Shown in pieces: positions 892-19,690 of a stretch of 32,000 nt of DNA. Origin of the DNA: Candidatus Methylomirabilis oxygeniifera (GTDB taxonomy: Bacteria > Methylomirabilota > Methylomirabilia > Methylomirabilales > Methylomirabilaceae); assembly GCA_000091165.1 (NCBI GenBank), contig FP565575.1, positions 270,001-302,000 of the forward strand. Reading direction: 5' to 3'. The position numbers and the translations under genes are program-made. Below the pieces are notes generated by a model. It made no database searches and had not been told where the DNA came from. It worked only from the letters and a program-made list of their open reading frames with translations. Within the stretch, counting starts at the first letter, position 1; the number at the start of each line of letters is the position of its first letter.

Positions 892-1791
892 ATGATCCGT
901 TATAAGGGCGCGAAACGGTGGTTCCTACAAGGGTGCCTTACAGCGTCTTTGCTCCTCACGGTCATGGTGCGACCGGGTACGGCGGTGATGCAGTCGGATA
1001 TCCACATCTCGGACAATGGAACCGTGTATTGGGCGCAGCGCAACGACGGTTCTTCCGGGAAGGTGCGGGTGACCACCGTCGGTCTTGGGGCCAGCACCGG
1101 CGCGATCAATACGAGCGCAGCGCTGGCGCAGGATGGGACGCTGACCGCCAGCGGAACGGTGAATCCGTTGTTTGCGCTTGGCAATGTGCGGCGGACCGGA
1201 ATCTTTGCGTGCACCATTCCGGGAACGTTCGATCCGTCCGCTAATTCAGGGAATGGATCGTGGAATGTGGGTGGATCTGTGATCAACGGCTTTAGTGATG
1301 TGCCAAACCTGACCGATCTCTCCAACAACTTGGGTGGGGTTCCATCCGCTCAAACCGGAGTGAATCAGTTCGGATTCAACACTGCCACCCCAACGACCTC
1401 TATCGCAAAGGGTGCCCCAACCCCTTCTGACGGGTTTACGCTGAACACCGGTGAATGCGTGATCTACGTCCTCAATAGTGCATCTTTGCTCACCCCGGGG
1501 ACCACGCTGACCGGTGCAGGCGCGTCTGCCGGATTCATGGATAACTTCATTACCGGGACCGTGCAGTTGACGACCGGGAAGACGGATACTGTGGCGAAGT
1601 TCCTTCCCACCACCACCACGACGACGACTACGACGACGACGACTACGACGACGACCACCACGACCACCACGACGACGACAATCCCCCCGCCGACGATTCC
1701 AACGACTGGAGAGTGGGGGATGATGATTTTCGGGGCGGCGCTGCTCGGATTTATGGCCTGGATGACCCAAGCCAGGCGGTCGATTAAGTAG
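892..1791 (+). CDS. secreted protein with 24xThr linker and IPTLxxWG / IPTL-CTERM-type C-terminal sorting signal
   Basis: ATG 892 follows a strong SD, GGAGAGGAGGA (876-886); the track ORF starts at in-frame ATG 865. The N-terminus has a signal-like segment, KRWFLQGCLTASLLLTVMV. The C-terminus IPTTGEWGMMIFGAALLGFMAWMTQARRSIK is a motif, a hydrophobic helix and a basic tail. A strong terminator follows. Confidence 0.85.
   Translation: MIRYKGAKRWFLQGCLTASLLLTVMVRPGTAVMQSDIHISDNGTVYWAQRNDGSSGKVRVTTVGLGASTGAINTSAALAQDGTLTASGTVNPLFALGNVRRTGIFACTIPGTFDPSANSGNGSWNVGGSVINGFSDVPNLTDLSNNLGGVPSAQTGVNQFGFNTATPTTSIAKGAPTPSDGFTLNTGECVIYVLNSASLLTPGTTLTGAGASAGFMDNFITGTVQLTTGKTDTVAKFLPTTTTTTTTTTTTTTTTTTTTTTTTIPPPTIPTTGEWGMMIFGAALLGFMAWMTQARRSIK
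1609..1680 (+). repeat. imperfect ACS trinucleotide run encoding 24 consecutive Thr
   Basis: There are 24 Thr codons (acc/acg/act/aca mix) from 1609 to 1680, directly followed by IPPPTIPTTGEWG. Confidence 0.95.
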
Positions 1792-1820: not shown

Positions 1821-1853
1821 AAAAAGCGGGGCGATACGCCCCGCTTTTTCTTT
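1821..1853 (+). terminator. Rho-independent terminator (A-tract/T-tract flanked, possibly bidirectional)
   Basis: aaaaaGCGGGGCG-ata-CGCCCCGCtttttcttt: an 8-bp GC stem (1826-1833 / 1837-1844), a 3-nt loop, then a T-run. Confidence 0.85.
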
Positions 1854-1890
1854 GTCAACCGTTCTTGATCTCCACAGTCCCATTCCGCCT

Positions 1891-4023
1891 ATGGTAGCGT
1901 CAACCGATGAACCGGAGATGGACACACGCCGTGGACGGATCGAGGTTATCAGTACCGCTGTTGTCCTCGCCCTGATCTACGGAGTACTCCTTTGGCAGTT
2001 CCCGCCCTCGCTTCTCCTGCTGCCGACGATCACAGCCGGCGGCGACACACTCTTTCACTATGTGACGGCTGCCTACCTCAGGGATCATCTGTTGGCGCAT
2101 GGCCGGATTGTGGGCTGGATGCCCGGTAATCTGGCCGGTTTTCCGCTGTTCCTCTTTTACTTTCCGCTGGCCTTCCTCGCCGTTTGCGGGCTGAGCCTTA
2201 TCGCTCCATTCCCGGTTGCGTTTAAACTGGGGACCGTTGCCGGGACCTTCGCGCTTCCGTTGGCTTCGTACGTGGCCCTCCGCTGGATCGGTCTGGCTTA
2301 CCCGACGCCTGCTATCGGAGCGCTATTCACGCTCTGTTTCCTCTTCATCGAGAGCAACACCATGTGGGGCGGCAATATCCCCAGCACACTGGCGGGAGAG
2401 TTCGCTTACAGCTTCTCCCTTCCCCTGCTGGTCCTCTTCCTCGGCGCCCTGTACCGGGGCGTGGAGAAGCGGCGGCACGCATGGTTGGGCGCGGGACTGC
2501 TCGCGCTGGTGGGTTTCAGCCACGGTTACACCCTGGTCATGGCGGCGGGGGCGGGGCTGTTCTTCCTCGTGTTCAATCGCGATATGTGGGCGACGCTCTG
2601 GTACCTCTTGCGGGTCTATGGGATCGGGGGGCTGCTGCTGGGTTTCTGGATCCTGCCGCTGGTCATGTCTTTGCCCTACACCTCCGGATGGCCCATCAGT
2701 TGGCAATTTACCTCGTTGCTTGAGCCGCTCCCGATCATCCTTTGGCCGATCGTCGCCGCCGCGATTGTCACGATCGCCGCCGCGTTCCGGCGACCGAAGC
2801 GTCCCGCGTCGAACCAGGGCCAGGAATGGATGAGCAAGGTCCATTACCTGAGCTTTCCGGTCGCGCTTGGGATCCTGCTGTTTTCGTTGGCCGCCCGCCT
2901 CAATCTGGTAGACATCCGATTCCTTTCGATCGCCCAGTTCTTCATCACGCTGGTCGCGGCCGCCGGATTCGGAAAAGCCTGGCCGCGTCTCGCGCCCCGT
3001 CTCCGGGCGATCGCCCTGGTAGTCCTCGCCCTCATCACTATCCTGTGGGCGCTCTCTCAGCAATCCTACAGCCGTGACTGGATTGTCTCAAACTATCGCG
3101 GGATGGAGTCGGCTCCGCTGTGGAAGCAATACCGGGTTCTGAACGAGGTGCTGAAGGGAGGGCCCCAGGATCCGCGGATCATGTATGAGCATTCCGGGAA
3201 GCACGAAGGCGCCGGTACCGTCCGCGCCTTCGAGGCCCTCCCGCTGTTTTCCGGCCGGTCCACGCTCGAAGGGGCGTACATGCAGTCCTCGCTGAGCGCG
3301 CCGTTCATCTTTGATCTCCAGTCAGAGCTGACGCCGACGCCATCGTGCCCCTTTCCGCAGTATCGGTGCAGCCGTTTCGATCCCGATCGGGCTGTTCGCC
3401 ATCTGGTCCTCTTCAACGTGAAGGGGTTCATCGCCGTCTCGTCGGAGGTCAAGGCGGCCCTGGATGCCCATCCGGCCTTCCGGCGGGCATTGAATGTTGA
3501 GCCGTACGCGATCTATGAGGTTCTTCCAGGTAATGGGCGGTATGTCGTCCCGCTCTCGTTCCAGCCGACCGTCTCCGGTGCGAAGGACTGGAAACGTCTG
3601 GCCTATGACTGGTTCCAGCGACCGGAATGGGCGGAAGTTCCACTGATTTTCCCACAAGGCGATGAGCCGCCACCCACGGATGCGGTTGCCTTCCATGGGC
3701 TGGAGCAGGGACCGGTCAAAGTCCCGTTGGCCGATGCCTGCCATGTTGAGGAGACGGTCCTTGAGCAGGAGATTCGCTTCCAGACCGATTGCCCGGGCCG
3801 GCCGCATCTGGTCAAGGTGTCCTATCATCCCAAGTGGAGGGCGGAGGGCGCCGATCGGATTTACCTGACGTCGCCGGCCTTTATGGTGGTCTATCCTGCG
3901 GACAAGCAGGTCAGGCTGGCGTTCGGCGACCGTTGGCCCGATACGCTTGGTTGGATTGCGACGGCGTTGGGTCTGCTGTGGCTGCTCGCAGAGGCAAGGA
4001 CGGCAGCCCCGCGACGCCGCTGA
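1891..4023 (+). CDS. large polytopic membrane protein, YfhO-like / GT-C-fold glycosyltransferase-like
   Basis: About 12 hydrophobic segments over some 420 aa are followed by a soluble domain of about 290 aa and a terminal TM. The C-terminal signature ...LVKVSYHPKWRAEGADRIYLTSPAFMVVYPADKQVRLAFG...LGWIATALGLLWLL matches the YfhO-type end. I prefer ATG 1891, because the track TTG 1852 lies inside the upstream terminator. Confidence 0.6.
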   Translation: MVASTDEPEMDTRRGRIEVISTAVVLALIYGVLLWQFPPSLLLLPTITAGGDTLFHYVTAAYLRDHLLAHGRIVGWMPGNLAGFPLFLFYFPLAFLAVCGLSLIAPFPVAFKLGTVAGTFALPLASYVALRWIGLAYPTPAIGALFTLCFLFIESNTMWGGNIPSTLAGEFAYSFSLPLLVLFLGALYRGVEKRRHAWLGAGLLALVGFSHGYTLVMAAGAGLFFLVFNRDMWATLWYLLRVYGIGGLLLGFWILPLVMSLPYTSGWPISWQFTSLLEPLPIILWPIVAAAIVTIAAAFRRPKRPASNQGQEWMSKVHYLSFPVALGILLFSLAARLNLVDIRFLSIAQFFITLVAAAGFGKAWPRLAPRLRAIALVVLALITILWALSQQSYSRDWIVSNYRGMESAPLWKQYRVLNEVLKGGPQDPRIMYEHSGKHEGAGTVRAFEALPLFSGRSTLEGAYMQSSLSAPFIFDLQSELTPTPSCPFPQYRCSRFDPDRAVRHLVLFNVKGFIAVSSEVKAALDAHPAFRRALNVEPYAIYEVLPGNGRYVVPLSFQPTVSGAKDWKRLAYDWFQRPEWAEVPLIFPQGDEPPPTDAVAFHGLEQGPVKVPLADACHVEETVLEQEIRFQTDCPGRPHLVKVSYHPKWRAEGADRIYLTSPAFMVVYPADKQVRLAFGDRWPDTLGWIATALGLLWLLAEARTAAPRRR

Positions 4024-4455: not shown

Positions 4456-4645
4456 GACTGTTGAATTGTAGATTGTCGATTCGCGTTCTGCCGCACATTG
4501 GCAGCGTCGCGGTTACGGTGAAGATGTTCTCATGATCAGGATCTTTATCTTTGGCTGACAGATTGTAGACGCAGCGTCACGGCCCCCGGTTGTGGCCGCC
4601 CTCAGGAAGGGGCTGCCGACCCGTGGGCAGAAGGGAGGGGCTTGT

Positions 4646-5683
4646 ATGCGCGCACGATACCGGGGCATGGTCCTCGCCGGCCTACTCGCGACGGCCGTTC
4701 TGATCCTGCCCACACCCGGCCTGGCAGCCGATACCTGCAGTCTCTCCGGCGTGTATCCCTTCAGCACCTTCGCCGATCCCGGGAGCGCGACCCAGGCCCT
4801 CGGGACGATGACCTTTACCACGGGCAGCTCGTGCAGCGTTCCGGGCACAGTGGCGATCGTGGGGTCCTACAAATCGGTCGGCGGGGTGGAGACCCTCTTC
4901 AGCGTCAGCGGCACGTACTCGGTGGACAGCACCGGACGCATGACGACGACGATTGCGGGGGATATCAACATCTGGGGGCAAGTCGCCCTGCAGGGGAGCC
5001 CCCCGGCCCGCAGCTTCCCATTCGTAGGCGCCTTCACCGGTAACCTGATCCTAGCCGGGGTGGCGGTAAGAGAGAACCTGGAACTCGCGACCGGACCGGC
5101 AGGCGCGGCAGGCGCGACAGGACCGGCAGGCGCAACGGGCGCTGCGGGAACGGCAGGCGCGGCGGGGGCGAGAGGCGCGACCGGACCGACAGGACCGGGA
5201 GGAGGCGCGACCGGCCCGACAGGACCGGCAGGCGCAACGGGCGCTGCGGGAACGGCAGGTGCGGCAGGCGCGACCGGGCCGACCGGCGCGACCGGCGCGG
5301 CAGGGCCGGTCAGGTCGAGCGTCCTGACCGGCGGGAACGCTGGGCTTGCCAATTTTCTTGCTCTGTCGTATATGGGTCCGAGAAATGGGACAGATAGTGC
5401 GACACGTGCGAACGTCGAGGTTCCTATGCCTCTGGGCTCGGCAAGCGGCTTCAGTGTGAATCTAAAAACTCCCCCTGGTGCCGGGACGTCGCGTAAGTTC
5501 ACCGTTTTGAGGAGTGCGACTCCTACACTCACCTGTACGATCGCTGGTACCGGCACGACATGTTCGGCCGCAGGGTCTCAGGCGTTCAGCTCTGATGATA
5601 TGCTGGCAGTAGAGCACTCAGCCTCCACCAGTGCTCCTGCCCCGTCACCAGGATCCTGGTCCCTGCTGTATGCGGTGCCATAA
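4646..5683 (+). CDS. secreted collagen-like (Gly-X-Y) repeat protein, paralog 1
   Basis: ATG 4646 follows GGGAGGGG, and the paralog shares the same MRARYRGM start. The signal peptide is [28 protein letters not shown]. After an N-terminal domain of about 120 aa comes a 73-aa Gly-X-Y tract (5093-5311), then a C-terminal domain of about 120 aa. A terminator follows. Confidence 0.9.
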
Positions 5684-5701
5684 ATATCTCTACACGTTCA
5701 A

Positions 5702-5734
5702 CCCCCTGGTCGTCGGACCAGGCGGGGTCTTTTT
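5702..5734 (+). terminator. Rho-independent terminator
   Basis: CCCCCTGGTC-gtcg-GACCAGG(c)GGGG followed by tcttttt. Confidence 0.8.
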
Positions 5735-5831
5735 GGCTGATAGATCGAAGGCGTAGTTTCACGGTCCTCGGTTGTTGCCGCCCTCGCGAAGAAAGGGTCG
5801 CCAAACCGTGGGACGACAAGGAGGATCGAGT

Positions 5832-6866
5832 ATGCGCGCACGATACCGAGGCATGGGCCTTGCCGGTCTGCTCACCGCGGCCGTTCTGATCCTGCCCACA
5901 CCCGGCCGGGCAGCCGATACCTGCAGTCTCTCCGGCGTGTATCCCTTCAGCACCTTCGCCGATCCCGGGAGCGCGACCCAGGCCCTCGGGACGATGACCT
6001 TTACCACGGGCAGCTCGTGCAGCGTTCCGGGCACAGTGGCGATCGTGGGGTCCTACAAATCGGTCGGCGGGGTGGAGACCCTCTTCAGCGTCAGCGGCAC
6101 GTACTCGGTGGACAGCACCGGACGCATGACGACGACGATTGCAGGAGATATCAACATTTGGGGGCAAGTCGCCCTGCAGGGGAGCCCGGCCCGTCTCCTG
6201 CCATTCGTTGGGGCCTTCACCGGTGACCTGATCCTGGCCGGGGTGGCGGTGAGCGAGAATCTGAACCTCGCTGCCGGACCGACCGGTCCGACCGGACCGA
6301 CCGGACCCGCCGGCGCGACCGGACCCGCCGGCGCGGCAGGCGCGACCGGGGCGACCGGCGCGACCGGGGCATCAGGAGGCGCGACAGGTCCGACCGGACC
6401 GGCAGGCTCGGCAGGCGCGACCGGCGCGACAGGCGCGGCGGGTCCGACCGGAGCGACCGGCGCGACAGGTGCGGCAGGGCCGAGCGTGGCGAGTGTCCTG
6501 ACCGGCGGATCGGCTGGAGAGGATCTTGCCATTCCTGGTGCTAAGTCATATATGGGTCCGGGAAACGGGCGAGATAATGCGACACTGACTAATGTTGAGG
6601 TCCCTATGCCTGCGGGCACTGCAAGCGCCTTACGTGTCAAGCTGAAAACTGCCCCTGGGGCCGGGAATTCGCGTAAGTTCACCGTCTTGCGTAGTGGGAA
6701 TACCAGTGCGCTCACCTGTACGATCGCTGATACTGGAACTGACTGTTCGATTCTCGCAGGGTCTCAGGCCTTTACTAGTTTGGAGAGGCTGGCGGTAGAG
6801 CACTCAGCCTTTGGGGCCGCCCTGTCACCAGGATCATGGTCTCTGCTGTATACGGTGACGCCGTAG
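5832..6866 (+). CDS. secreted collagen-like (Gly-X-Y) repeat protein, paralog 2
   Basis: ATG 5832 follows AAGGAGGA. The architecture matches paralog 1. The Gly-X-Y tract is 70 aa (6276-6485). A terminator follows. Confidence 0.9.
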
Positions 6867-6930: not shown

Positions 6931-8889
6931 GTGTCTGATCGTCTGTTGTCATTCCGATCGCACCCGGTGGCGGTCTGTCTGGCGATCGTGGGGCTGGCCG
7001 GACTTCTGTACGCCGGTTCGCTGCTCAACGGCTTTGCCTTCGACGACCATCTCCTGGTCGAGACCAATCTCCAGTTTCGCTCGATCGAGGGGCTTACGCA
7101 GTTATTCAGGTCCGGCGGGTGGCTGACGTATCGCCCAATCCGCACCGCCTCGTACGCGATCGACTATGCCCTGTTCGGGCTCAATCCCTCCGGTTTCCGG
7201 GCGTTCAACATCCTCTACCACGCCCTGAACGGGGTCCTGGTCTTCACCGTGCTGCGGACGATCCTGGGGGTGACCCGCCCCGCCTTTCTCACGGCGCTGC
7301 TCTTCATCGTCCATCCTGTCCAGACCGAGTCGGTCGCCTACATATCCGGCCGGCGGGACATCCTGTTCACCCTGTTCTATCTGACAGGGTTCTATGGATT
7401 CGTCCGATACCGGGCGACCGGCAGGGGACGGTGGCTGTACCTGACGGGGATCTCGTACTATCTCGGCCTTCTTTCGAAGGAGATGGCGATTACCCTCCCG
7501 CTCCTCTGTCTTGCGTACGATCTGGTCCGTTCGATGCCCGAGGGCGGGGAGGGAGACCGGCGATCGTGGCGGGCCCTCAGGGAGGCGGGGCTGCGGCTCT
7601 GGCGGGATCATCGTCGTCTGTACCTGGTCATCGGGGCGATCTTTTCCGCGACGGCCTATTACTTTGTGGCGCTCTTTCGCGTCACGCAACGGTTTGATCT
7701 GTGGGGCGACGGACTGTGGCCGACCGTGCTGACCAGCGTCACGATCATGGGCCACTATCTGACACTGCTGCTCTGGCCCGTGACCCTGAACGTGGATTAC
7801 TCGTTCAACGCCTTTCCGGTGCCGGAGACCCTCCTGGACGGCCGGGTCCTGATGGCGATTGCCGCGGTGGGCGGGAGCTGGTGGGCGATCTGGAGGGGCC
7901 TGGCGAACCATCGGTGGGCGGCATTCGGGGGTCTCTGGTTCTTTACGACACTGCTGCCGGTCGCCCAGATCATCCCCCATGATGAGATCGTGGCCGAGCA
8001 CTATCTGTACCTGCCGTCGATCGGCGTCTGTCTGGCAGCCGCCATGCTGGCGGAGGGGCTGCCAGAGCGTATCCGGCAGCGCCGGGCTGTCACGGCAGTC
8101 TTCGGGCTCGTGGTGGTTCTGCTCGGATTCAGGACGGTCATCCGCACCCGCGATTGGAAGGACGACCTGACACTTTGGACCAGGACGGTCGAGACCGCCC
8201 CGGCATCCGCGAGGGCGCGCCGAAACCTGGGTCGGCTGTATATGATTCGGGGGCGTCATCAGGAGGCCGCCCAGGAGTTCCGGGAGGCCCTCCGGATCGC
8301 GCCGAACGATGCGCCGACCTGGAACAACCTGGGCGCGATGCTGCTTGAGCTGGGGAACCTCGACGGGGCGGAACAGGCCTTCACCGGAGCGCTTCGCCTG
8401 AACACCCTGCCGCTTGATGTCAGGATCAACCTGGGAATCGTCTCCCTCAGGCGCGGGCGGACGGCGCAGGCCGAGGCGTACTTTCTCGCGGCCCTGGCGT
8501 CGTCGCAACTGCCGCCGTCGCAGCGGGCGCAGGCGCTGAACAACCTGGGCATGGTGCGCGCCACGCAGGGGCGGTCGGCTGAGGCCGAGCAGGCCTTCAA
8601 AGAGGCGGTCGCGCTTGCGCCCGGCGATGCCGATGCCAGGCGAAACCTGGGATTGGCCTATCTCGAGAAAGGGCAGATGCAAGCGGGGATTGCGGAGCTG
8701 GAGGAGGCCGTCCGGTATAAGGCCGCAGACCCGACGCTTCATCACCTGCTTGGGGAGGTCTATCATATGCAGGGGCAGCAGGATCGGGCCGTGGCCTCTC
8801 TGAGAAAGGCGCTGAGCCTGAAGGGCGACCTGGCGGAGGCGCGAGAGTTGCTGGATTCGATTCTCCGCTCTTCCCCAACGACTCCATGA
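6931..8889 (+). CDS. PMT/TMTC-like GT-C membrane glycosyltransferase fused to C-terminal TPR repeats
   Basis: The N-terminal 420 aa or so are polytopic, with loop-1 motif GFAFDDHLLVETN followed by YRPIRTASYAIDYALFGLNPSGFRAFNILYHALNG. The C-terminal 230 aa or so carry several TPR units (...ARRNLGRLYMIRGRHQEAAQEFREALRIAPND...). The start is GTG 6931, with no clear SD. Confidence 0.75.
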   Translation: MSDRLLSFRSHPVAVCLAIVGLAGLLYAGSLLNGFAFDDHLLVETNLQFRSIEGLTQLFRSGGWLTYRPIRTASYAIDYALFGLNPSGFRAFNILYHALNGVLVFTVLRTILGVTRPAFLTALLFIVHPVQTESVAYISGRRDILFTLFYLTGFYGFVRYRATGRGRWLYLTGISYYLGLLSKEMAITLPLLCLAYDLVRSMPEGGEGDRRSWRALREAGLRLWRDHRRLYLVIGAIFSATAYYFVALFRVTQRFDLWGDGLWPTVLTSVTIMGHYLTLLLWPVTLNVDYSFNAFPVPETLLDGRVLMAIAAVGGSWWAIWRGLANHRWAAFGGLWFFTTLLPVAQIIPHDEIVAEHYLYLPSIGVCLAAAMLAEGLPERIRQRRAVTAVFGLVVVLLGFRTVIRTRDWKDDLTLWTRTVETAPASARARRNLGRLYMIRGRHQEAAQEFREALRIAPNDAPTWNNLGAMLLELGNLDGAEQAFTGALRLNTLPLDVRINLGIVSLRRGRTAQAEAYFLAALASSQLPPSQRAQALNNLGMVRATQGRSAEAEQAFKEAVALAPGDADARRNLGLAYLEKGQMQAGIAELEEAVRYKAADPTLHHLLGEVYHMQGQQDRAVASLRKALSLKGDLAEARELLDSILRSSPTTP

Positions 8890-11024: not shown

Positions 11025-13241
11025 TTACCCCTGACCGGCAGACCTGGACGGGCCGGCCATGCGCGCGTCCAGTCCGGCGAATCGAGATCCGACAAGAACG
11101 GTCAGCAGCAAGGTCACCGCTCCCAGCCAGAGCAGTCCGGTCTTGTACCATGGCGGTCGGTAGATTGCCGTGAGGCGATGCGGACCTGCCGACACCTCGA
11201 CCCCGATGAAGCTCGGTGACACCATGAACGGGCGCGCGTCGCGTCCATCAATGGTGACGTGCCAGTTCGGATGGTAGGTCGTCTTGATGGCGATGGTCGC
11301 GGCGTGGGCGCACTCCACCTGCAGATCGAGCCTGCCGGGCAGGATCTGCTCCTCTGTGATTCTCCCGCCGTCCGGGCATCCCGGGCCGGACGCGTCGAAG
11401 TATCCCTCGTCTGGTGAGGGGTACTCGTATCGAATGAACCGCCCGGCCGCAGGATCAGGGCCCTCGAGCCACCGGCGATTCTCGTCGAGCAGGGTCGCCT
11501 GAGAATCGGTGCGAATCCCCCTGACGATATTGACAAACCCGGCGTATCCATCGGTCTTTGCCTCGTAGAGCGTGTAACGGCCGGTCCTTTCCAGCGGTCG
11601 CAGGAACTCCGGCATGGCGAGACCGGCCGGTGCGACCACGTAGCGCGCATTAAAGACATTGTAGTGGGCCGGATCGCGATCGTCAAAATGCCAGATCATG
11701 TCGGAGTTGAGGGAGAAACCCGAATACGGGGGCGATACCGCGGGGATCCGGTAAAAGGTCAGCAGGTCGTAGAAGTGCAGGTCTCCAAACTGTACCGTCT
11801 TCCCCCAGTTGGCCCGCAGGCCGACATAGGTTCGTCCTGGCGGCAGATCTTTGAGCGCCGCTAAGATCGTTCTGGCGTCGGCGTCGGCGTCGACGGCACG
11901 CTGTGTACGTTCCATCCACTGTGCATTCAGCGCGTAAAAGTGTCGTCTCTCTGCTAACGGCGGGATCAACAGAACGACAACGGCACATACGCCGACGGCC
12001 CCGCGCCAACGGGTGACGGCAGGGCTGAGCAGATGCCACAACCACTCTCCTCCCAGTCCGATCAGCATGATCGCCCCGATATTCACGCCGCCGATGAAGC
12101 GATGATACAGCATGCCTTTATGCATGGGGATGAGGTCGGCCAGCGCTCCCCACGTGACCCGTCCAAAAAACAGCAACAGCCACATCCCGAAGATCGACAG
12201 GCCGAGCGCTCCGTGCCGGCCTCGACGCGCGACGGCGGAGGCGATTCCAAGCGCCAGGAGCGCCGTCAGGACCGGAAGGCGGTCGAAATCCAGCAGGTCC
12301 CCGTTGATCAACCAGCCCAGAATGGCGTGAGCCCCGAAGGAGTCGTACTTCCAACGCTGAAGGTACGGGCTGAAACCCAGGAACGGATTGAACAGTACGA
12401 AGGGGAGCCAGAAGTACGACGTGATGACGGCCGAGACTCCCGCGACGATCAGTAATCGCATGATGCGCAATCGGACGTTGTCCCGCCGTATGCCGACCAG
12501 AAGGGAGGCGACCATCGTCAGCCCCATGATAAAGCTATACAGCAGATGCGATAGAACCAGTGTGGATGCGGCAACGATCGCACCGAGGTAGCCTTGACCC
12601 GTTCTCATAACATGGATCAGACAACCGAGGCTCAGAAACGACAGATGCATCGCCCACAGTTGACTGTACATCCCGAAGCCGCGCCAGATGTAGCTGTCAT
12701 ATTCGAACCCGTAATGATGATCGGCTGAGATCAATGTGGCGCTTGCTGCGGCGACCCCTGCTGCGATCGACGAGAATCCGATCCGACGCATCGACCAGTA
12801 GACGGACAGCGGAAACCCGACCAGGAGCAGATATCGGATGAGATTGAAAAGAGTCAGCAGTTCGAATTGCCCCAGGAGGATGCGGTGCAGCAGCACGACG
12901 GTCAGATGCGGCAGATGCTGATAGGTGCTGGCAATCGGGAACCCAAGCTCAAGCTCAGGGTTCCAGTGATCGATGAGATTGTCCCCCGTCGCCCACGCCC
13001 GGCTGATACCTTGAATGAGCAGAAAATGCACGGCATTATCGTTCAGGCTGGGGATTGGGCGCGAGAGCTCAGGCAGCAGTGTCACGGCATTGAAGAGGAT
13101 TGGGATCAGCAGAAGAAGGACCACGACGCAAGAGCTGTTGTAGGTGACAGCATCGTTGGAAACACGACAGTCAATCCGGTCCGATATAAAAGCGCGGCGT
13201 ATGCTCATTGTCATATACAAAGAATCAGGTCTTGCATTCAC
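11025..13241 (-). CDS. large polytopic membrane protein, YfhO-like / GT-C-fold glycosyltransferase-like (second copy of this architecture)
   Basis: About 450 aa of TM segments are followed by a soluble domain and a terminal TM. The C-terminal signature ...IAIKTTYHPNWHVTIDGRDARPFMVSPSFIGVEVSAGPHRLTAIYRPPWYKTGLLWLGAVTLLL is strongly YfhO-like. The start may be GTG 13241, ATG 13214 or ATG 13208. Confidence 0.65.
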   Translation of the reverse strand: MNARPDSLYMTMSIRRAFISDRIDCRVSNDAVTYNSSCVVVLLLLIPILFNAVTLLPELSRPIPSLNDNAVHFLLIQGISRAWATGDNLIDHWNPELELGFPIASTYQHLPHLTVVLLHRILLGQFELLTLFNLIRYLLLVGFPLSVYWSMRRIGFSSIAAGVAAASATLISADHHYGFEYDSYIWRGFGMYSQLWAMHLSFLSLGCLIHVMRTGQGYLGAIVAASTLVLSHLLYSFIMGLTMVASLLVGIRRDNVRLRIMRLLIVAGVSAVITSYFWLPFVLFNPFLGFSPYLQRWKYDSFGAHAILGWLINGDLLDFDRLPVLTALLALGIASAVARRGRHGALGLSIFGMWLLLFFGRVTWGALADLIPMHKGMLYHRFIGGVNIGAIMLIGLGGEWLWHLLSPAVTRWRGAVGVCAVVVLLIPPLAERRHFYALNAQWMERTQRAVDADADARTILAALKDLPPGRTYVGLRANWGKTVQFGDLHFYDLLTFYRIPAVSPPYSGFSLNSDMIWHFDDRDPAHYNVFNARYVVAPAGLAMPEFLRPLERTGRYTLYEAKTDGYAGFVNIVRGIRTDSQATLLDENRRWLEGPDPAAGRFIRYEYPSPDEGYFDASGPGCPDGGRITEEQILPGRLDLQVECAHAATIAIKTTYHPNWHVTIDGRDARPFMVSPSFIGVEVSAGPHRLTAIYRPPWYKTGLLWLGAVTLLLTVLVGSRFAGLDARMAGPSRSAGQG

Positions 13242-13514: not shown

Positions 13515-13543
13515 TTGACAAGGTTTTTGATCGTGCCTACAGT
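13515..13543 (+). promoter_or_regulatory. candidate sigma70 promoter (TTGACA-17-TACAGT)
   Basis: Perfect -35 at 13515-13520, a 17-nt spacer, and -10 TACAGT at 13538-13543. It lies about 80 nt upstream of ATG 13626. Confidence 0.45.
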
Positions 13544-13625: not shown

Positions 13626-14576
13626 ATGAGATCGACCGTCCGAACTGTTCTGATCTGTTTGGTGGTGAGCCTTGGCGTCATCGTGAGCGCCGAGAAGAGC
13701 TGGGCCGGATTTGTGTCCGGGGGGTCCCGACTCATCTATTACTACAGTCAGCGTTCCCTCGTGAACCCGGGGGCCGGGAGCGGCACGGGTGCTACGATCC
13801 TGGCCGTGAAGAACAATTCGAGCGATGCAACCAAGGTGCAGATGAAGATCTTCAACGGCTCGACCTGCGCCGGCTTTGGTCCGGTGACCTTCGATCTGCC
13901 CGGAAATCAGAGCCTTCGGATCAATGTCTCGGATCATGTCTCGGCGACCCCGTTCCCGGAAGGGTGGGTGGATCTGTATGCGGTCAATTCGGGAGGCACG
14001 CCGATCCGATGGGATTACCTGACCGGGAAGTTCACGGTACTCGATTTTGGAGGGTCCTCCACGACTGTGGCGATCTCTCAGGCGGCCGCCATGTTCTCCG
14101 ACGCGAATCGGTCGAGCGACCCTCAGGGCGGGGTCATCGCCGATAACACCGACGCGCGGACGTGGGCGCCGCACCTTCAATCCGTCGACTTTTGGGCCAC
14201 AGGGGGGCCGTTTAACATCAGCGATCGTCTGGTGGTGGTTCCGGTCTCCAGTGTGCCTGGGACGGCCCCGGTCGCCTCTACCAGCGGGATCGGTCTCTCC
14301 TTCAAGACCTTGGCGGGTGCGGAGACACTGAATACGAGCGCCACCACTTCCTGCATGCTGGCCTCGTCTCTCCCGAGCCTTCACCCGGGTTTCTCCGCCT
14401 CCTACCCGAATGGCGCCACCGTGACGGATGGGGGCACTCTCAATCTCGTCGCTGACTCCTCCGGCACCAATAAAGGCAATGCCGGGTGGCTGTTCGAGAT
14501 GGCGACGTCCCCGCTGCTTCTGGGTGTGCATCCGATACAAGCATGGGCGGAGTTGGCGGTGGACGGTCACGAGTAG
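13626..14576 (+). CDS. secreted protein of unknown function (orphan), immediately upstream of the exosortase-family gene
   Basis: ATG 13626 follows GGGGAGGAGG (13611-13620). The signal peptide is MRSTVRTVLICLVVSLGVIVSAEKSWA. Third-position GC is high in this frame. I recognise no family and see no C-terminal TM sorting tail. Confidence 0.8.
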   Translation: MRSTVRTVLICLVVSLGVIVSAEKSWAGFVSGGSRLIYYYSQRSLVNPGAGSGTGATILAVKNNSSDATKVQMKIFNGSTCAGFGPVTFDLPGNQSLRINVSDHVSATPFPEGWVDLYAVNSGGTPIRWDYLTGKFTVLDFGGSSTTVAISQAAAMFSDANRSSDPQGGVIADNTDARTWAPHLQSVDFWATGGPFNISDRLVVVPVSSVPGTAPVASTSGIGLSFKTLAGAETLNTSATTSCMLASSLPSLHPGFSASYPNGATVTDGGTLNLVADSSGTNKGNAGWLFEMATSPLLLGVHPIQAWAELAVDGHE

Positions 14577-14631
14577 TCGTATCGGGCGCTCCGGATTGTC
14601 CGCTCGTCCTCACACACCTGCAACTCGCGAA

Positions 14632-14670
14632 CGCCTTCCCAATGGGCTGTGGAAGCCCATTGGGAAGGCG
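14632..14670 (+). other. perfect 17-bp inverted repeat (hairpin, 5-nt loop) between the orphan secreted-protein gene and the exosortase gene
   Basis: CGCCTTCCCAATGGGCT-gtgga-AGCCCATTGGGAAGGCG. There is no clean T-run after it. The right arm contains the SD-like GGGAAGG just before TTG 14671. Confidence 0.9.
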
Positions 14671-15645
14671 TTGCTGTATGGGCTCGGGCTCATGTTGGTG
14701 CAATGGGGGCTCGAGCGGGGTACGTTTGTCGCCATCCTCACCGATCGCCTGGCGCAGGGCGTGCTGGTTGGTCTGCATCTGTTGGGTGTGCCGGCGAGGC
14801 TTGACGGGCTGGTGCTCCACGCCGGCGCGCTGAGTCAGCCGGTCTCGGCAAGCTGTCTGGGCCTGATCGCGGTGACCGGCTATCTCTCCGGCCTCCTCGC
14901 CGTACCGGCCGACTGGACGACGCGCTGGCGCGGGATCCGGCGCGACCTGCCGTTGCTGGTTCTTGGGAATGCGATTCGACTGTCGGCGCTCGGGATCCTC
15001 ATCACCGTATCTGTCTCAGCCTTTCAGTTTGCGCATGCGATTCTCATGGGGGCGGTTGCGCCGCTGGCCCTGATCGGGCTGTGGGGCTTCTGGTTCTACA
15101 AGGACCTGGGCGCGCTGTCGGCGTATCCCTGGCGCTTCGCCAGAGACGTGTCCCTCGCGCTGCCTCTGGCAATCGGGCTTTGGTGGCTGCTGCTTGACCC
15201 GTATGCGGTCGGGCTGTCGGTGGTGATCAAGGCGGCCCTGAGCGGCCTCGTCGGGATGCCGATTGTCGGGACCGGGGTGGTGGAGGACGGCTTCAAACGC
15301 CTCCTCGACTTTCAATTGCCGGACGGCGGTTTCCGCATCGAGATGGGCGGCCGCAGCCTGGCCCTCGCTCCGTTGATCGCCTTGATCGGCGCCTCGCCCA
15401 TCCCCTGGACGCGGCGGATTGGGCTGGGAGGTCTCGGTCTGACGATCCAGTTCGGGCTCCATGCCATGGAGGTGGTCGGACTGGTTCTCCTGGGTCGGAT
15501 CGCTCCTCCGGTGGTCCCGGCGGTCGAGGCGCTTTCGGATTACCTCGCCCTTGCCTCCGGTCCGTTCTTGTGGCTGCTGCTCGCGGCTCCGTCTTCAGCG
15601 TGGTGGGCGCTTGAGGGAGAGGGCCGTCGCGCGCGATCTGTCTGA
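14671..15645 (+). CDS. exosortase/archaeosortase-family transpeptidase-like membrane protein (candidate XrtH-type, IPTLxxWG-CTERM-specific), short N-terminus and long C-terminal polytopic extension
   Basis: The motif series matches exosortases. The pre-Cys segment is LAQGVLVGLHLLGVPARLDGLVLHAG...VSASCLGLIAV. The Arg in LGNAIRLSALGIL lies 41 residues after the Cys, the same spacing as ArtA C173/R214. This is followed by FAHAILMG. The start is uncertain: TTG 14671, ATG 14692 or TTG 14596. The track start 14428 overlaps the upstream gene and is not TM-like. Confidence 0.65.
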   Translation: MLYGLGLMLVQWGLERGTFVAILTDRLAQGVLVGLHLLGVPARLDGLVLHAGALSQPVSASCLGLIAVTGYLSGLLAVPADWTTRWRGIRRDLPLLVLGNAIRLSALGILITVSVSAFQFAHAILMGAVAPLALIGLWGFWFYKDLGALSAYPWRFARDVSLALPLAIGLWWLLLDPYAVGLSVVIKAALSGLVGMPIVGTGVVEDGFKRLLDFQLPDGGFRIEMGGRSLALAPLIALIGASPIPWTRRIGLGGLGLTIQFGLHAMEVVGLVLLGRIAPPVVPAVEALSDYLALASGPFLWLLLAAPSSAWWALEGEGRRARSV

Positions 15646-15700
15646 GTCTGTGTGGTGTCCCTCGCTATAAGAACGGACCCCGAGCTATTGGCGACACGGA

Positions 15701-15730
15701 TTGCCTTTTGCTCTACAAGAAGGGTATAGT
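15701..15730 (+). promoter_or_regulatory. candidate sigma70 promoter (TTGCCT-18-TATAGT)
   Basis: Lies in the 134-nt gap upstream of the radical SAM gene. The -10 TATAGT is at 15725-15730. Confidence 0.3.
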
Positions 15731-15779: not shown

Positions 15780-17141
15780 ATGGCGGCAACGGTGACACGA
15801 AAGGTTCTGCTCGTCAATCCGAGCTGGGATGGGCTGGTAAGCCGAAAGGGACGCCGGTTTAATCGCACCTGGCCTCCCCTTGATCTCCTGAATTGCGCGG
15901 CGCTGCTGGAGCAGGACGGGCTGAGCGTCGGCCTCATCGATGCCCGCGCCGTGCCCACCACGCCGGAGACGATTCGAGACGCCGCAGCGCGACACGATCT
16001 GGTCTTCGTGACCTCGTCGCCGATCGACCGGTGGCAATGCCCCAACCTCGATCTGGGCCCATTCCTGGCCGTTACACACCTGGTGGAACCCGACAAGCTG
16101 TACGTAATGGGGACGCATGGGACCGTTGCGCCTGGAGAGCTGCTTCATATGACGCAGGCGCGAGCCATCGTCCGTGGCGAGCCTGAGCCGGCGGTCCGAG
16201 CGCTTTGTGAGGGCAAAGACCCTTCTGAGGTCCCGGGTGTGACCTATCTGCAAGAGGGCACAACTATCCATAATCCGGAAGGGAACCCCGTGGATCTGAC
16301 GACCCTGCCGATGCCCGCCTTTCATCTCCTCGACCTTCGCAACTACCGGTACGAAATTCTCGGCGGAAGATTTGCCCTGCTTGAGACGACGCGCGGCTGT
16401 CACCACCGGTGCCATTTCTGCCTTCTCAAGATGTACGGCAAAGGCTACCGCAAGAAAGACCCCGAGCAGGTTGTTCATGAGGTCACACATCTGGTTCGAG
16501 AAGCGGGAGCCAAGACAGGATACTTCATCGATCTGGAGTTCACCGCGGTCCGTGACGACGTCCGGGATCTGTGTGAGCGACTGGTGTCGGCCGGGTTGCC
16601 CTTCGAGTGGGCGTGCCAGACCAGGGCCGATTATGTGGACGGGCCGCTTCTGAAGCTGATGAAGCGCGCCGGCTGTCGGCTGATCCACTTTGGCGTTGAA
16701 AGCGGCTCGCCCCGTATCCTGGCTGCAACGAATAAGCGGATTACCCTTGAGCAGATCGAACGCGGAATTGCGGAGACGAAGCAGTCAGGGATCGATCAAC
16801 TGTGTTTCTTCATGTTCGGCTTCCCGGGTGAAACCGCCGGGGATATGGAGGCGACGATCGCGTTCGCCAAGCGGCTGAGCCCCACCTATGCGTCATTTCA
16901 TGCCGTGACCCCCTACATGGGCACGAAGCTGTATGAGATGAGCGGCTCCTCGGAGCTGTTCCCTGAAGTGCTGAGCAAGGAGCACGACCCCCTCATCCTT
17001 CAGGCGATCGCCAACCGGGCCTTTCGTGAGTTTTACCTGCGGCCGGCAATGCTCTGGTCCAGGGTGCGTAGGGTGGACGTTCGTCTTTGGCGCAGGCAGG
17101 CCGCACTGTTCTGGCACTACGTGCGACCAGCCTTGACCTAG
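15780..17141 (+). CDS. B12-binding-domain radical SAM enzyme (class B)
   Basis: N-terminal Rossmann-like B12-binding region (KVLLVNPSWD...GLIDARAVP...DLVFVTSSP). CX3CX2C motif in TTRGCHHRCHFCLL. Downstream GCRLIHFGVESGS and FMFGFPGET. Confidence 0.85.
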   Translation: MAATVTRKVLLVNPSWDGLVSRKGRRFNRTWPPLDLLNCAALLEQDGLSVGLIDARAVPTTPETIRDAAARHDLVFVTSSPIDRWQCPNLDLGPFLAVTHLVEPDKLYVMGTHGTVAPGELLHMTQARAIVRGEPEPAVRALCEGKDPSEVPGVTYLQEGTTIHNPEGNPVDLTTLPMPAFHLLDLRNYRYEILGGRFALLETTRGCHHRCHFCLLKMYGKGYRKKDPEQVVHEVTHLVREAGAKTGYFIDLEFTAVRDDVRDLCERLVSAGLPFEWACQTRADYVDGPLLKLMKRAGCRLIHFGVESGSPRILAATNKRITLEQIERGIAETKQSGIDQLCFFMFGFPGETAGDMEATIAFAKRLSPTYASFHAVTPYMGTKLYEMSGSSELFPEVLSKEHDPLILQAIANRAFREFYLRPAMLWSRVRRVDVRLWRRQAALFWHYVRPALT

Positions 17142-17153
17142 GCTCTTTCCGTC

Positions 17154-17906
17154 ATGCCCCAAGACCCGCTTGGCACTCGCCGGCCCCGGGTTCCACTGAC
17201 GTTCATTATCCCGGCCTATAACGAAGAAGCCATCGTTGCCGCCAACGTCGACCGGCTCAGGTGCTACCTGAAAGACCGGGAGATTACGACGTATGAAATG
17301 CTCCTGGTCAGCAACGGCTCGACCGACCGGACCGTCGAGATCGCCAGGGCAAGCGCAGCAGGCCGCGTGGACCTCACGGTCATTGAGTTGCCGCGGCGCG
17401 GCGTGGGCCGCGCATTCAAGGCCGGGATGGCGCGCGCGCATTATGACCGGGTAGTGTGCCTCGATCTGGATCTTACCATCGATCTCGACTTCATTACGGC
17501 TGCGGCGGAAGGACTCGACACGGCGGACATCGTCATCGGTTCCAAGCAGACCGGGGGGCAGCAGCGCTCGTGGATCCGACGGCTGGCAAGCGCGGCGTTT
17601 ATCGTCTGCACGCGCCGGTTACTTCACCTCACGTTTACGGACTACTCGATCGGCGCCAAGGCGTTTCGGACCGCCTCTATACGGCCATATCTCCCCCATC
17701 TTGCCGATCAGAGCGCCTATATCCTGCAACTGATCGCCTGGGGGCATCGCGACGGCGTCGCCATTGCTGAGATTCCGGTCTGGTGCGACGATCGGAGAAA
17801 GAGTCGTTTCAACCTCATCCACGAGGGCTTCTATCGCTTCGGCAGCCTGTTTGTGCTGTGGCTTCAGGAACGGCTGTGTTGGAGGAGAGGGATCGACGGG
17901 CGATGA
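17154..17906 (+). CDS. GT2 glycosyltransferase (Dpm1-like, soluble)
   Basis: PLTFIIPAYNEEAIVAANVDRL...MLLVSNGSTDRT...RGVGRAFKAGM...CLDLDLTID. It starts 12 nt after the radical SAM stop. Its TGA overlaps the next ATG (ATGA at 17903-17906). Confidence 0.85.
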   Translation: MPQDPLGTRRPRVPLTFIIPAYNEEAIVAANVDRLRCYLKDREITTYEMLLVSNGSTDRTVEIARASAAGRVDLTVIELPRRGVGRAFKAGMARAHYDRVVCLDLDLTIDLDFITAAAEGLDTADIVIGSKQTGGQQRSWIRRLASAAFIVCTRRLLHLTFTDYSIGAKAFRTASIRPYLPHLADQSAYILQLIAWGHRDGVAIAEIPVWCDDRRKSRFNLIHEGFYRFGSLFVLWLQERLCWRRGIDGR

Positions 17907-19690
17907 AGGCTCACCGGAGGCTGCGCGTGCGGTCAATATTCTCTTCTTTTCCGACACACGTCTTGCTTGAGAAGTGCATTGTATTGGGAGCATTGTTTGC
18001 GATTGCACTCTCTTGTTCGTTTCATGTGCTGCACTATTGGTTTCTTTACGATGATCCCGCTGCTATCGTCTATTCGACGAAATCCTTGAACGATATATTT
18101 TTCTCCAATGACGCATATGTATATGGGTTTTATGCGCCGTTGTTAGCGCTTATCTTTAAGCCTGACGTTCTCTTTTTTGGGATCCAACCATTACCGTACC
18201 GTATTCACAATCTCATGATTCTCGTCTCGATAGCTTTTGTGGTCTACCAGATACTCAGGCAGTATACGGATAAATTCTCATCTGCCGTCTCTGCGATGAT
18301 TGTTCTATGTGCAACCCCCTCGTTTATCTGTGTGATTTGGATAACGCTCAGGCAATATCTGTACCCCATGCTCTTTTCTTTAATCGCGATCTATCTCTAC
18401 ATAAAATACACACCCGATCCGAAACGCGACACGTACGTGTTCCTTACCATACTGGTTCTGAGTGAATTAAGCTTTATGGGCAAAGAACAATTTATGACTT
18501 TGCCTTTTGTCCTTTTGGTCCTCTCGAAAGAGAACTTTAAGAACAGATGTCTCAAGACATATCCTTACTTTCTCTTGCTTGCCCTGCATTTTTTGCTTCG
18601 ATGGTATGTGTTGGGAAGTATGGGGGGATATTTAGGAGTTACTTACAACCCTTTGGTTTACCTGAAAACGGTCTTTACATCCATCTTCACCACCTCAGAG
18701 ATTTTATTTGGATCTCAGTGGTTGGTAGCTGTTTTGTTGTTGCCGTTCTTGTTACAGCCCGACAAGTGTATGCGATTGGTTCTCTTGTGGGTAGCGACCC
18801 TCGCTGTGTCTTTTCTTGGTATGTCTGTATATCCTTCGGCAGACACCTATCGCTATTGGTTCATTGCCGCAGTTCTGTTTTCCTTTATGATGGGGTTTGG
18901 CTCGGCTGTCATCAAAAACCCTCTGCTTAGGGGATTGTACATCCTGGCGGCAGTCATTCCGTTCTTCATTCACAGCTCGAAAATAAACGAGGAAATCACG
19001 GTCTTGTTTCAACGTGAATCGTCTATAGCCTATAAGACGTCACAATCTATGCTTGATGAGAGATACCGCAACGCAGTGATGATGTTTCCGGACAGCCCGT
19101 ATACTCATTCCGGGTATATATATTCGATGCAAAACGCATATCAGAGGGTCCTGGGAGTCGAAGCCCTCCCTACGTTCTATCCCTTTGAACTGCTGGCATT
19201 TTATCCGGACATATTACAAGATTTCGATGGCGTGTATGAAATAACACCACACGAAATTATCGATATTACACAGTCTATAAAAAAGAGATCGGATCTTTTT
19301 TTGGCAGCGTTGACCGATCAGAAACCGGAATTCGGACTCTTGCAGAGCGGAGAAGAGTTAGCGGTAAGTCTCAAGTGCAGATCCGGCAGATCGGTCACCT
19401 CGTTTATCATAGAGCAAGAGCAGTTTGCCGATAAGCAGCGCGTGAGTAGAAACGTTCTTCCTTACCTTGAGAGATTGAACTTGAGCAACACCATAAAAAA
19501 GAGCGGGAACGCCAGACTGGTGCCGATAGAGGAGATTTCATATAAGAAGAAAACGTGGTATTTCGGACGAGAACGCATTCCGGATGCTACGCTATTGATA
19601 ACAAATTTGTGCAGTGATCTATCGGGAAACAATACGCGTTTATCGGATGTTTTGTATATTCCTTTGGCGAAGAGGTTTCACATAAGCTAA
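17903..19690 (+). CDS. low-GC polytopic membrane protein, PMT/TMTC-like GT-C glycosyltransferase without TPR
   Basis: ATG 17903 is in an ATGA overlap. About 400 aa of TM segments have the loop-1 motif WFLYDDPAAIVYS followed by FYAPLLALIF...FGIQPLPYRIHNLMILV, parallel to FAFDDHLLVETN...YRPIR...FGLNPSGFRAFNILY in the 6931 gene. The C-terminal domain is soluble, about 200 aa. Hand-counted lines inside give 35-45% G+C, against 67-70% in the flanks. Confidence 0.65.
   Translation: MKAHRRLRVRSIFSSFPTHVLLEKCIVLGALFAIALSCSFHVLHYWFLYDDPAAIVYSTKSLNDIFFSNDAYVYGFYAPLLALIFKPDVLFFGIQPLPYRIHNLMILVSIAFVVYQILRQYTDKFSSAVSAMIVLCATPSFICVIWITLRQYLYPMLFSLIAIYLYIKYTPDPKRDTYVFLTILVLSELSFMGKEQFMTLPFVLLVLSKENFKNRCLKTYPYFLLLALHFLLRWYVLGSMGGYLGVTYNPLVYLKTVFTSIFTTSEILFGSQWLVAVLLLPFLLQPDKCMRLVLLWVATLAVSFLGMSVYPSADTYRYWFIAAVLFSFMMGFGSAVIKNPLLRGLYILAAVIPFFIHSSKINEEITVLFQRESSIAYKTSQSMLDERYRNAVMMFPDSPYTHSGYIYSMQNAYQRVLGVEALPTFYPFELLAFYPDILQDFDGVYEITPHEIIDITQSIKKRSDLFLAALTDQKPEFGLLQSGEELAVSLKCRSGRSVTSFIIEQEQFADKQRVSRNVLPYLERLNLSNTIKKSGNARLVPIEEISYKKKTWYFGRERIPDATLLITNLCSDLSGNNTRLSDVLYIPLAKRFHIS

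Follow-up and report, generated by a model that had tools for sequence, protein, structure and literature searches.

The gene, its deposited forms and its start codon

The window analysed here is the whole stretch of 32,000 nucleotides (nt) at positions 270,001 to 302,000 of contig FP565575.1 from Candidatus Methylomirabilis oxygeniifera, and the gene in question is an open reading frame (ORF) at 14596-15645 (+) that joins a short exosortase-type domain (module 1) to a polytopic membrane domain (module 2). An exact-sequence look-up identified it as CBE67400.1 of Ca. Methylomirabilis oxyfera, deposited with the label "membrane protein of unknown function". The gene for a secreted protein, here termed the partner, lies directly upstream, and a second secreted protein with a C-terminal IPTL-CTERM tail is encoded near the beginning of the window (Table 1). 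The gene is a fusion of the Rosetta-stone type, in which an XrtH-like enzyme and its associated membrane protein are carried on one polypeptide. It is a previously undescribed fused form and is accompanied by a dedicated secreted partner.

The CBE67400.1 entry gives a protein of 324 amino acids (aa) starting at TTG 14671. A copy from a metagenome-assembled genome annotated by PGAP (KAB2959765.1), which is named only "exosortase/archaeosortase family protein", has 405 aa and starts at ATG 14428. The open frame spans 14428-15645 (+), with the stop of the upstream gene at 14574-14576, and the 405-aa form would overlap the upstream gene by 149 nt. Positions 14596-14671 encode a basic N-terminal tail, RERLP..LWKP.GKALL, which is kept as protein in the homologous loci L001, L003, L005, L017 and L018, the relatives that keep it showing 81%, 66%, 50% and 38% identity. 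By hydropathy and charge this tail would supply the cytoplasmic anchor of the first helix. Because the tail is conserved and no canonical start codon lies between the stop at 14574-14576 and TTG 14596, the latter is the best-supported start. The N-terminal conservation favours a start at or before 14596, and the deposited form, at 324 aa, probably lacks the conserved basic tail; both the name and the start of the CBE67400.1 reference annotation can be improved. The relatives start with M-x-x-S-N-R-I-G-R, at a site that overlaps the end of the gene before it; the window has ACG at this position.

A short-form exosortase domain joined to a membrane domain

Module 1 was compared with the profile hidden Markov models of NCBIfam, for which the curated cut-offs are 23 bits for the superfamily signature TIGR04178, 86 bits for XrtH (TIGR04177), 170 bits for XrtX (NF046081), 35 bits for NF041730 and 20.5 bits for TIGR04174. 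The superfamily signature was passed at 28.3 bits by the 349-aa form and at 31.9 bits by the N-terminal domain alone. The best-scoring subfamily for the window protein was XrtX (37.9 bits), with an alignment that covered positions 22-159 of the 168 in the model; XrtH gave 28.8 bits, here with positions 26-151 of 158 aligned. The exosortase assignment made in the initial annotation, which had been drawn from the letters alone, therefore held for the superfamily and failed at the cut-offs of these two subfamilies. Both XrtH and XrtX were matched by all 19 fusion-family members and TIGR04178 by 16 of the 19 at E <= 0.01, the best XrtH score in the family being 52.7 bits (protein P0021). A Pfam scan of the window fusion protein gave no match, and a PDB sequence search with the fusion-family profile gave none even at E 10.

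The strings LLGVPARLDGLVLHAG..VSASCLGL, GNAIRLSALG, FAHAILMG and GGFRIEMGGRSLALAPLIALIG quoted in the initial annotation were each found where it had placed them, and the spacings of 41 residues from Cys to Arg and 19 residues from Arg to His were confirmed. An alignment of 19 homologs, with identities down to 34%, shows no variation at Cys87, Asn125, Arg128 or His147 (Cys87/Arg128/His147 counted from TTG 14596 are Cys55/Arg96/His115 counted from ATG 14692). In a pairwise alignment the Cys, the Asn-x-x-Arg and the His fall onto the C, the N..R and the H (FAHEY) of a strongly scoring exosortase from locus L008. The passed signature, the invariance of these residues and their alignment with the L008 enzyme bear out the proposal that the motifs are of exosortase type. 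The Cys-to-Arg spacing is the same as that between Cys173 and Arg214 of archaeosortase A (ArtA) from Haloferax, both of which are required for activity by mutagenesis (PMC9263693).

The crowding of these motifs into the first ~120 residues had at first been taken as an anomaly. The short-form models are however 158 (XrtH), 168 (XrtX), 156 (ArtB) and 150 aa (XrtM) long, so that motifs within the first ~120-150 residues represent the normal short-form layout. The statement that at most one transmembrane helix precedes the Cys was also not upheld, as there are two helices ahead of it when translation starts at TTG 14596. The basic loops RWRGIRRD and RR273-274 and the C-terminal RRAR fit a positive-inside model, and hydropathy together with charge suggests that Cys87, His147 and a conserved loop of module 2 would lie on the same, periplasmic side. 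Residues ~22-172 make up a complete minimal exosortase, a member of the superfamily that by NCBIfam thresholds is neither XrtH nor XrtX.

The extra polytopic C-terminal region of about 170-180 aa noted initially is real, being kept in every homolog found (311-380 aa). When the last ~180 residues were used as a profile against 1.84 billion representative proteins only 14 matches were obtained; apart from fusion-family members and fragments, these were three proteins of 188-196 aa that stand alone (P0025, P0027 and P0028). Alignment of the C-terminal domain with the stand-alone family using hhalign gave a probability of 98.2% and an E value of 2.8e-14 over 160 columns, and a wider alignment gave an E value of 6e-16, the probabilities ranging from 98.2 to 98.6%. 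The stand-alone family belongs to Hydrogenedentota (loci L007 and L008), and in both contigs examined its gene comes immediately after one for an exosortase that, among the subfamilies, scores best with XrtH, at 72.5 and 79.6 bits against the cut-off of 86. The order of exosortase and membrane protein genes in these loci is the order of the domains in the fusion. Since the C-terminal half is homologous to membrane proteins encoded after XrtH-like exosortases, the gene is a fusion of an enzyme with its partner membrane protein; the near-full coverage of the XrtX and XrtH models and this homology to exosortase-adjacent proteins agree with the initial proposal that a short-form exosortase has been joined with a partner membrane domain.

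The only NCBIfam family matched consistently by the C-terminal domains and the stand-alone proteins was NF041730, "exosortase H-associated membrane protein". Of the 11 stand-alone proteins 10 matched it (best E 1.3e-5, up to 23.8 bits, all below the cut-off), as did 5 of 12 fusion-family C-terminal domains (best E 8.3e-5, all below 35 bits). The layout is also that of NF041730, a polytopic protein beside a short exosortase, as the C-terminal domain has ~170 aa with four predicted long helices and is fused to the exosortase. The junction between the modules is a short, charged linker, which is probably cytoplasmic. All of the approximately 25 homolog clusters carry the fusion, which is therefore no sequencing artefact. 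With about 25 clusters the family is rare; the members with organism names are all Methylomirabilota, and it appears to be confined to Methylomirabilota-like metagenome lineages. A scan of GTDB genomes gave a single Methylomirabilota contig, of 2.5 kb.

An AlphaFold2 model of the C-terminal domain, built from a 24-sequence alignment, had a predicted local distance difference test score (pLDDT) of 83 and a predicted template modelling score of 0.75. The model has one helix of 41 residues and a three-stranded sheet, together with two short and three long helices, and a Foldseek search with it against the PDB gave no counterpart. The most conserved polar residues of the domain form the motif LDF.LP.GG.R.E on the three-stranded sheet (strands at C-domain residues 55-79), and by the positive-inside rule the sheet and its loop would face the periplasm.

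The XrtH system as defined by TIGR04177, TIGR04174 and NF041730 likewise combines a short core of ~160 aa containing Cys, Arg and His with a polytopic partner membrane protein of ~185 aa and an IPTL-CTERM protein encoded in the same region; among the fusion loci covered, such a protein was found in the window and in L006. The XrtH system differs in that two proteins take the place of the single polypeptide found here. Both halves of CBE67400.1 fall far below the equivalog cut-offs, the gene has an invariant secreted partner gene, and the family appears to be restricted to Methylomirabilota-like lineages. The Hydrogenedentota family of P0025 shares a homologous C-terminal domain over ~160 columns and follows an XrtH-like exosortase, but there it is a separate gene, the exosortase has 429-497 aa with a long N-terminal extension, and the loci are without a CBE67399-like partner. 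Fusion of an exosortase to a protein that is otherwise its gene neighbour has precedents in XrtA with EpsI, a periplasmic domain, at its C-terminus and in exosortase E/protease, which carries a CPBP-type protease; no match of the C-terminal domain to EpsI or to a CPBP-type protease appeared in the general NCBIfam scans.

A permuted or duplicated architecture had been offered as an alternative to fusion. Alignment of the N-terminal half with the C-terminal half by hhalign, using successively more diverse profiles, gave scores of 15.8, 21.3 and 25.1 with E values of 0.11, 0.014 and 0.0033, and the probabilities of 0.5-9.6% were below accepted significance, so that this alternative was not sustained. 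In its most developed form it would make module 2 a degenerate, Cys-less duplicate of the exosortase, the protein a covalent pseudo-dimer and the associated membrane proteins in general inactive paralogues, which we regard as unlikely. The same register nevertheless recurs in each alignment, with a beta segment, a helix at the position of the Cys and then (A/S)-P-x-(D/P)-W..R(R/W). The score climbs with the diversity of the profiles, and the value of 25.1 exceeds both a reversed control (13.0) and 20 of 20 block-shuffled controls (maximum 19.5). Both halves are also predicted to consist of a helix, a three-stranded sheet and three helices. Set against these are the low probability, the tendency of membrane proteins to yield spurious matches and the low confidence of the structure model of the N-terminal half. 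The Cys-less "echo" of the pre-Cys segment noted initially thus survives as a recurring register and falls short of accepted significance. A "shadow triad" of Ser254, Glu292 and Glu311, at similar spacing in the C-terminal half, was dropped because its residues vary in the wider family, Ser254 and Glu292 among them. Were the duplication correct, minimal exosortases would work as pairs of enzyme and pseudo-enzyme, which here would be covalent.

Candidate substrate, secreted partner and proposed mechanism

In the IPTL-CTERM protein a signal peptide and a poly-Thr stalk of 24 residues are combined with a tail that reads IPTTGEWGMMIFGAALLGFMAWMTQARRSIK. The tail is built as IPTTGEWG-MMIFGAALLGFMAWMTQA-RRSIK, corresponding to a motif, a transmembrane helix and a basic cluster, and passed TIGR04174 at 29.7 bits over residues 278-305 of 308. 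The gene lies 12.8 kb upstream of the fusion in the window and 5.4 kb upstream in locus L006, where the gene order is that of the window: IPTL-CTERM protein, PF10131 membrane protein and, further on, partner and fusion. Between the window (1696-1791) and L006 (1991-2086) the final 29 residues of the tail show 97% identity, whereas the rest of the two IPTL-CTERM proteins is unalignable and the exosortases are only 66% identical. Such extreme conservation of the tail alone would be the pattern expected for a signal that is read by a conserved enzyme.

A study of the surface layer (S-layer) of Methylomirabilis identified IPTL-CTERM on the S-layer protein, of which the M. oxyfera homolog is CBE67388, and proteomics recovered all of the protein except its C-terminal tail (PMC8671808). 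Exosortases are nowhere mentioned in that study, which left the processing and attachment of the layer unsettled (PMC8671808). The accession CBE67388 is twelve numbers before CBE67400.1, and on accession order, position, size and features the IPTL-CTERM protein of the window is probably CBE67388, a putative S-layer protein. A literature search for XrtH, IPTL-CTERM and Methylomirabilis exosortase found IPTL-CTERM mentioned only in the S-layer paper, with no link to an exosortase.

We consider it probable, with some reserve, that CBE67400.1 is a two-module inner-membrane enzyme, composed of an exosortase and its partner domain, and that its likeliest client is the IPTL-CTERM putative S-layer protein. 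The fusion is the foremost candidate enzyme for trimming and anchoring the S-layer protein of the cell. The sequence comparisons establish that module 1 belongs to the superfamily, that module 2 is homologous to exosortase-adjacent proteins, that the two are fused, that the partner gene is conserved and that the IPTL-CTERM tail is present and conserved. The proposed mechanism was drawn by analogy with sortases and ArtA, and within it we infer the catalysis, the topology, the part played by module 2 and which protein is the substrate. The modules would be joined head to tail through the short cytoplasmic linker and so would form a fixed 1:1 complex, with Cys87, Arg128 and His147 placed toward the periplasmic face. 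The IPTL-CTERM protein, as the putative substrate, would be exported by Sec and retained in the inner membrane by its C-terminal helix, and the enzyme would read the IPTTGEWG motif beside this helix. Cys87 would cut at the motif to give an acyl-enzyme, from which the client would be handed to an acceptor that may be a lipid, a glycan or a protein, and the helix would be discarded. The periplasmic sheet and loop of module 2, with LDF.LP.GG.R.E, probably would dock the client tail or the acceptor, and the invariant upstream secreted protein would be the third component.

Several observations weigh against this assignment. The cut-offs of XrtH and XrtX were missed widely (28.8 of 86 and 37.9 of 170 bits), so that specificity for IPTL-CTERM cannot be read from the family assignment. 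The C-terminal domain of the window protein itself gave no match to NF041730 even at E <= 10, and the link from module 2 to this family runs through homologs and profiles which are also below 35 bits. The full-length AlphaFold2 model (16 sequences) had a pLDDT of 55, too poor to give the geometry of the Cys, Arg and His. No biochemical data on any XrtH-type enzyme were found in the literature searched. No IPTL-CTERM or other tail-bearing gene was found in the 3-10 kb flanks at L002-L004, L010, L011 and L014-L021, and the sole constant neighbour of the fusion is a secreted protein without such a tail. A separate, true XrtH is possible elsewhere in the M. oxyfera genome, of which the window was covered. 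The initial suggestion that the IPTTGEWG protein is an XrtH-type client accordingly stood in part: the tail passes its own model and the linkage recurs in L006, whereas the enzyme scores well short of XrtH and the distant members are without a nearby substrate gene.

The upstream partner, which the initial annotation had missed, represents a family of ~300 aa with a signal peptide, two conserved cysteines and the motifs GGSRL.YY and PIR[WF]D. The window and 13 of 13 other distinct loci with enough upstream DNA have it directly upstream of the fusion in the same orientation, at identities down to 30%. The gap between partner and fusion is 4-130 nt, and in one lineage the genes overlap by 14 nt. 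The promoter-like and terminator-like sites of Table 1 would bound a two-gene unit of partner and fusion. Searches of the partner against Pfam and NCBIfam at E <= 10 gave nothing, and its profile gave only noise against the PDB. No C-terminal hydrophobic helix or basic cluster was found in any lineage, and because it never has a C-terminal helix the partner is unlike an exosortase substrate.

The constant pairing also raises another reading, which we judge unlikely, namely that the partner family itself is the dedicated client, either through a non-canonical signal or as an acceptor for other proteins, and that the proximity of the S-layer gene is incidental. The partner accompanies the fusion at every locus with enough sequence, to 30-34% identity, where no other gene is constant, and most fusion-family members have no IPTL-CTERM gene in the flanks covered. 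The lack of a C-terminal helix and basic cluster in all lineages speaks against it, since to our knowledge every exosortase or archaeosortase substrate described has both. Exosortase substrates are moreover often scattered in genomes, as in PEP-CTERM systems, and the role of an accessory subunit accounts equally well for the tight pairing of partner and fusion.

The partner was also considered as a counterpart of the N-terminal domain of the long Hydrogenedentota exosortases, which was ruled out by an hhalign E value of 0.44 against the L007 exosortase. The XrtH-like exosortases of both Hydrogenedentota loci (L007 4440-5933; L008 4432-5721) carry an N-terminal extension of ~300 aa that is unrelated to the Methylomirabilis partner.

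The closest experimental parallel to the proposed mechanism is the ArtA/PGF-CTERM system of Haloferax volcanii, which shares the superfamily and the 41-residue spacing. ArtA removes the C-terminal helix of the S-layer glycoprotein and anchors it to lipid, as established by experiment (PMC9263693). The client of ArtA and the candidate client here are both S-layer proteins, the latter putatively, with a Thr-rich stalk before the signal. ArtA differs in being longer, with several helices before the Cys, in reading PGF and not IPTL, and in having no fused partner. Its host is a single-membrane archaeon, whereas Methylomirabilis is diderm (PMC8671808), and the product would therefore need a further route to the outer surface. 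If the proposal is true, the fusion would provide a bacterial counterpart, in a diderm envelope, of the ArtA-dependent anchoring of archaeal S-layers. A wider reading, in which the cassette is a self-contained S-layer-anchoring machine of the Methylomirabilota, with module 2 as a Cys-less paralogue and the partner as an acceptor or periplasmic adaptor, joins several of these ideas and is as a whole improbable.

The minimal exosortases of XrtH type have no experimental study in the literature searched, and the natural fusion is informative about the proteins associated with them. Being a natural fusion, it gives direct evidence that the exosortase and its associated membrane protein act as a unit, and structural or heterologous studies could be carried out on one polypeptide. 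The question left by the Methylomirabilis S-layer study (PMC8671808) gains a definite candidate enzyme, and for annotation a new, conserved cassette of three parts can be described.

Neighbouring genes

Table 1. Features of the window, with residues numbered from TTG 14596.
Feature	Position	Strand	Remarks
Candidate substrate, secreted, with poly-Thr stalk and IPTL-CTERM tail	892..1791 (tail 1696-1788)	+	TIGR04174
Promoter-like site TTGACA-17-TACAGT	13515..13543	+	Upstream of partner gene; consensus match only
Upstream partner gene CBE67399.1, "exported protein of unknown function", 316 aa	13626..14576	+	Directly upstream of the fusion
Exosortase fusion ORF	14596..15645	+	349 aa counted from TTG 14596
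Short-form exosortase domain, residues ~22-172	14659..15111	+	TIGR04178, XrtX and XrtH matches
Cys87 codon (tgt), predicted catalytic nucleophile	14854-14856	+	Outer end of third helix; invariant in 19 homologs
Arg128 codon (cga), GNAIRL motif	14977-14979	+	Invariant; 41 residues after Cys
His147 codon (cat), FAHAIL motif	15034-15036	+	Invariant; 19 residues after Arg
C-terminal membrane domain, residues ~180-349	15133..15645	+	Relative of exosortase-H-associated membrane proteins
Conserved loop LLDFQLPDGGFRIE, residues 237-249	15304..15342	+	Asp238, Gly244-Gly245, Arg247 and Glu249 invariant
Terminator-like hairpin	15690..15705	+	After the fusion; consensus match only, count not above shuffled controls
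B12-binding radical SAM enzyme	15780-17141	+	Best partial matches HpnJ and BchE, far below cut-offs
GT2 glycosyltransferase	17154-17906	+	After the radical SAM gene
635-aa ORF	17783-19690	+	No Pfam or NCBIfam match
CPBP/Rce1-like intramembrane protease CBE67407.1	23028-23993	+	7 kb downstream of the exosortase

The radical SAM and glycosyltransferase genes reported initially next to the fusion were both found there. Both come after the cassette in the window and in L001 and L005, the closest relatives, and are absent beside it in L002-L004, L010 and L011; as they are kept only among the closest relatives, they lie outside the core cassette. Their recurrence in the same arrangement after the cassette, in a window rich in glycosyltransferases, would fit a membrane component of the neighbouring glycan or polysaccharide pathway, in which exosortase-like motifs are kept for other chemistry and no protein is sorted. 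Such a role is highly improbable. The two genes are missing beside the more distant cassettes, the Cys, Arg and His motifs are invariant, and we know of no member of the exosortase family with a role in a glycan pathway. A setting of this kind is in any case typical, since exosortase genes are commonly found in exopolysaccharide or glycosylation loci, for example XrtA/EpsH.

ORFs of similar position and size to the 635-aa ORF follow the GT2 gene in L001 (587 aa) and L005 (476 aa), as judged by position and size only. The intramembrane protease CBE67407.1 weakly matched two proteases from other C-terminal sorting systems, MrtJ and MrtS.

Large polytopic GT-C-like proteins are encoded at 1852-4023 (+), with a match to PF10131 (PTPS_related), at 6931-8889 (+), with PMT_2 and TPR domains, and at 11025-13241 (-), with a YfhO-like C-terminus. 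These three proteins and the three GT2 genes that surround the IPTL-CTERM gene suggest that its poly-Thr stalk may be O-glycosylated; the S-layer study found no glycans on the detectable S-layer peptides (PMC8671808). Two tandem paralogous genes at 4592-5683 and 5772-6866 (+) encode secreted proteins with a common N-terminal domain and Gly-X-Y collagen-like repeats (PF01391), and the same N-terminal domain (37% identity) is encoded in L006 at 4699-6090, between the IPTL-CTERM gene and the exosortase cassette.

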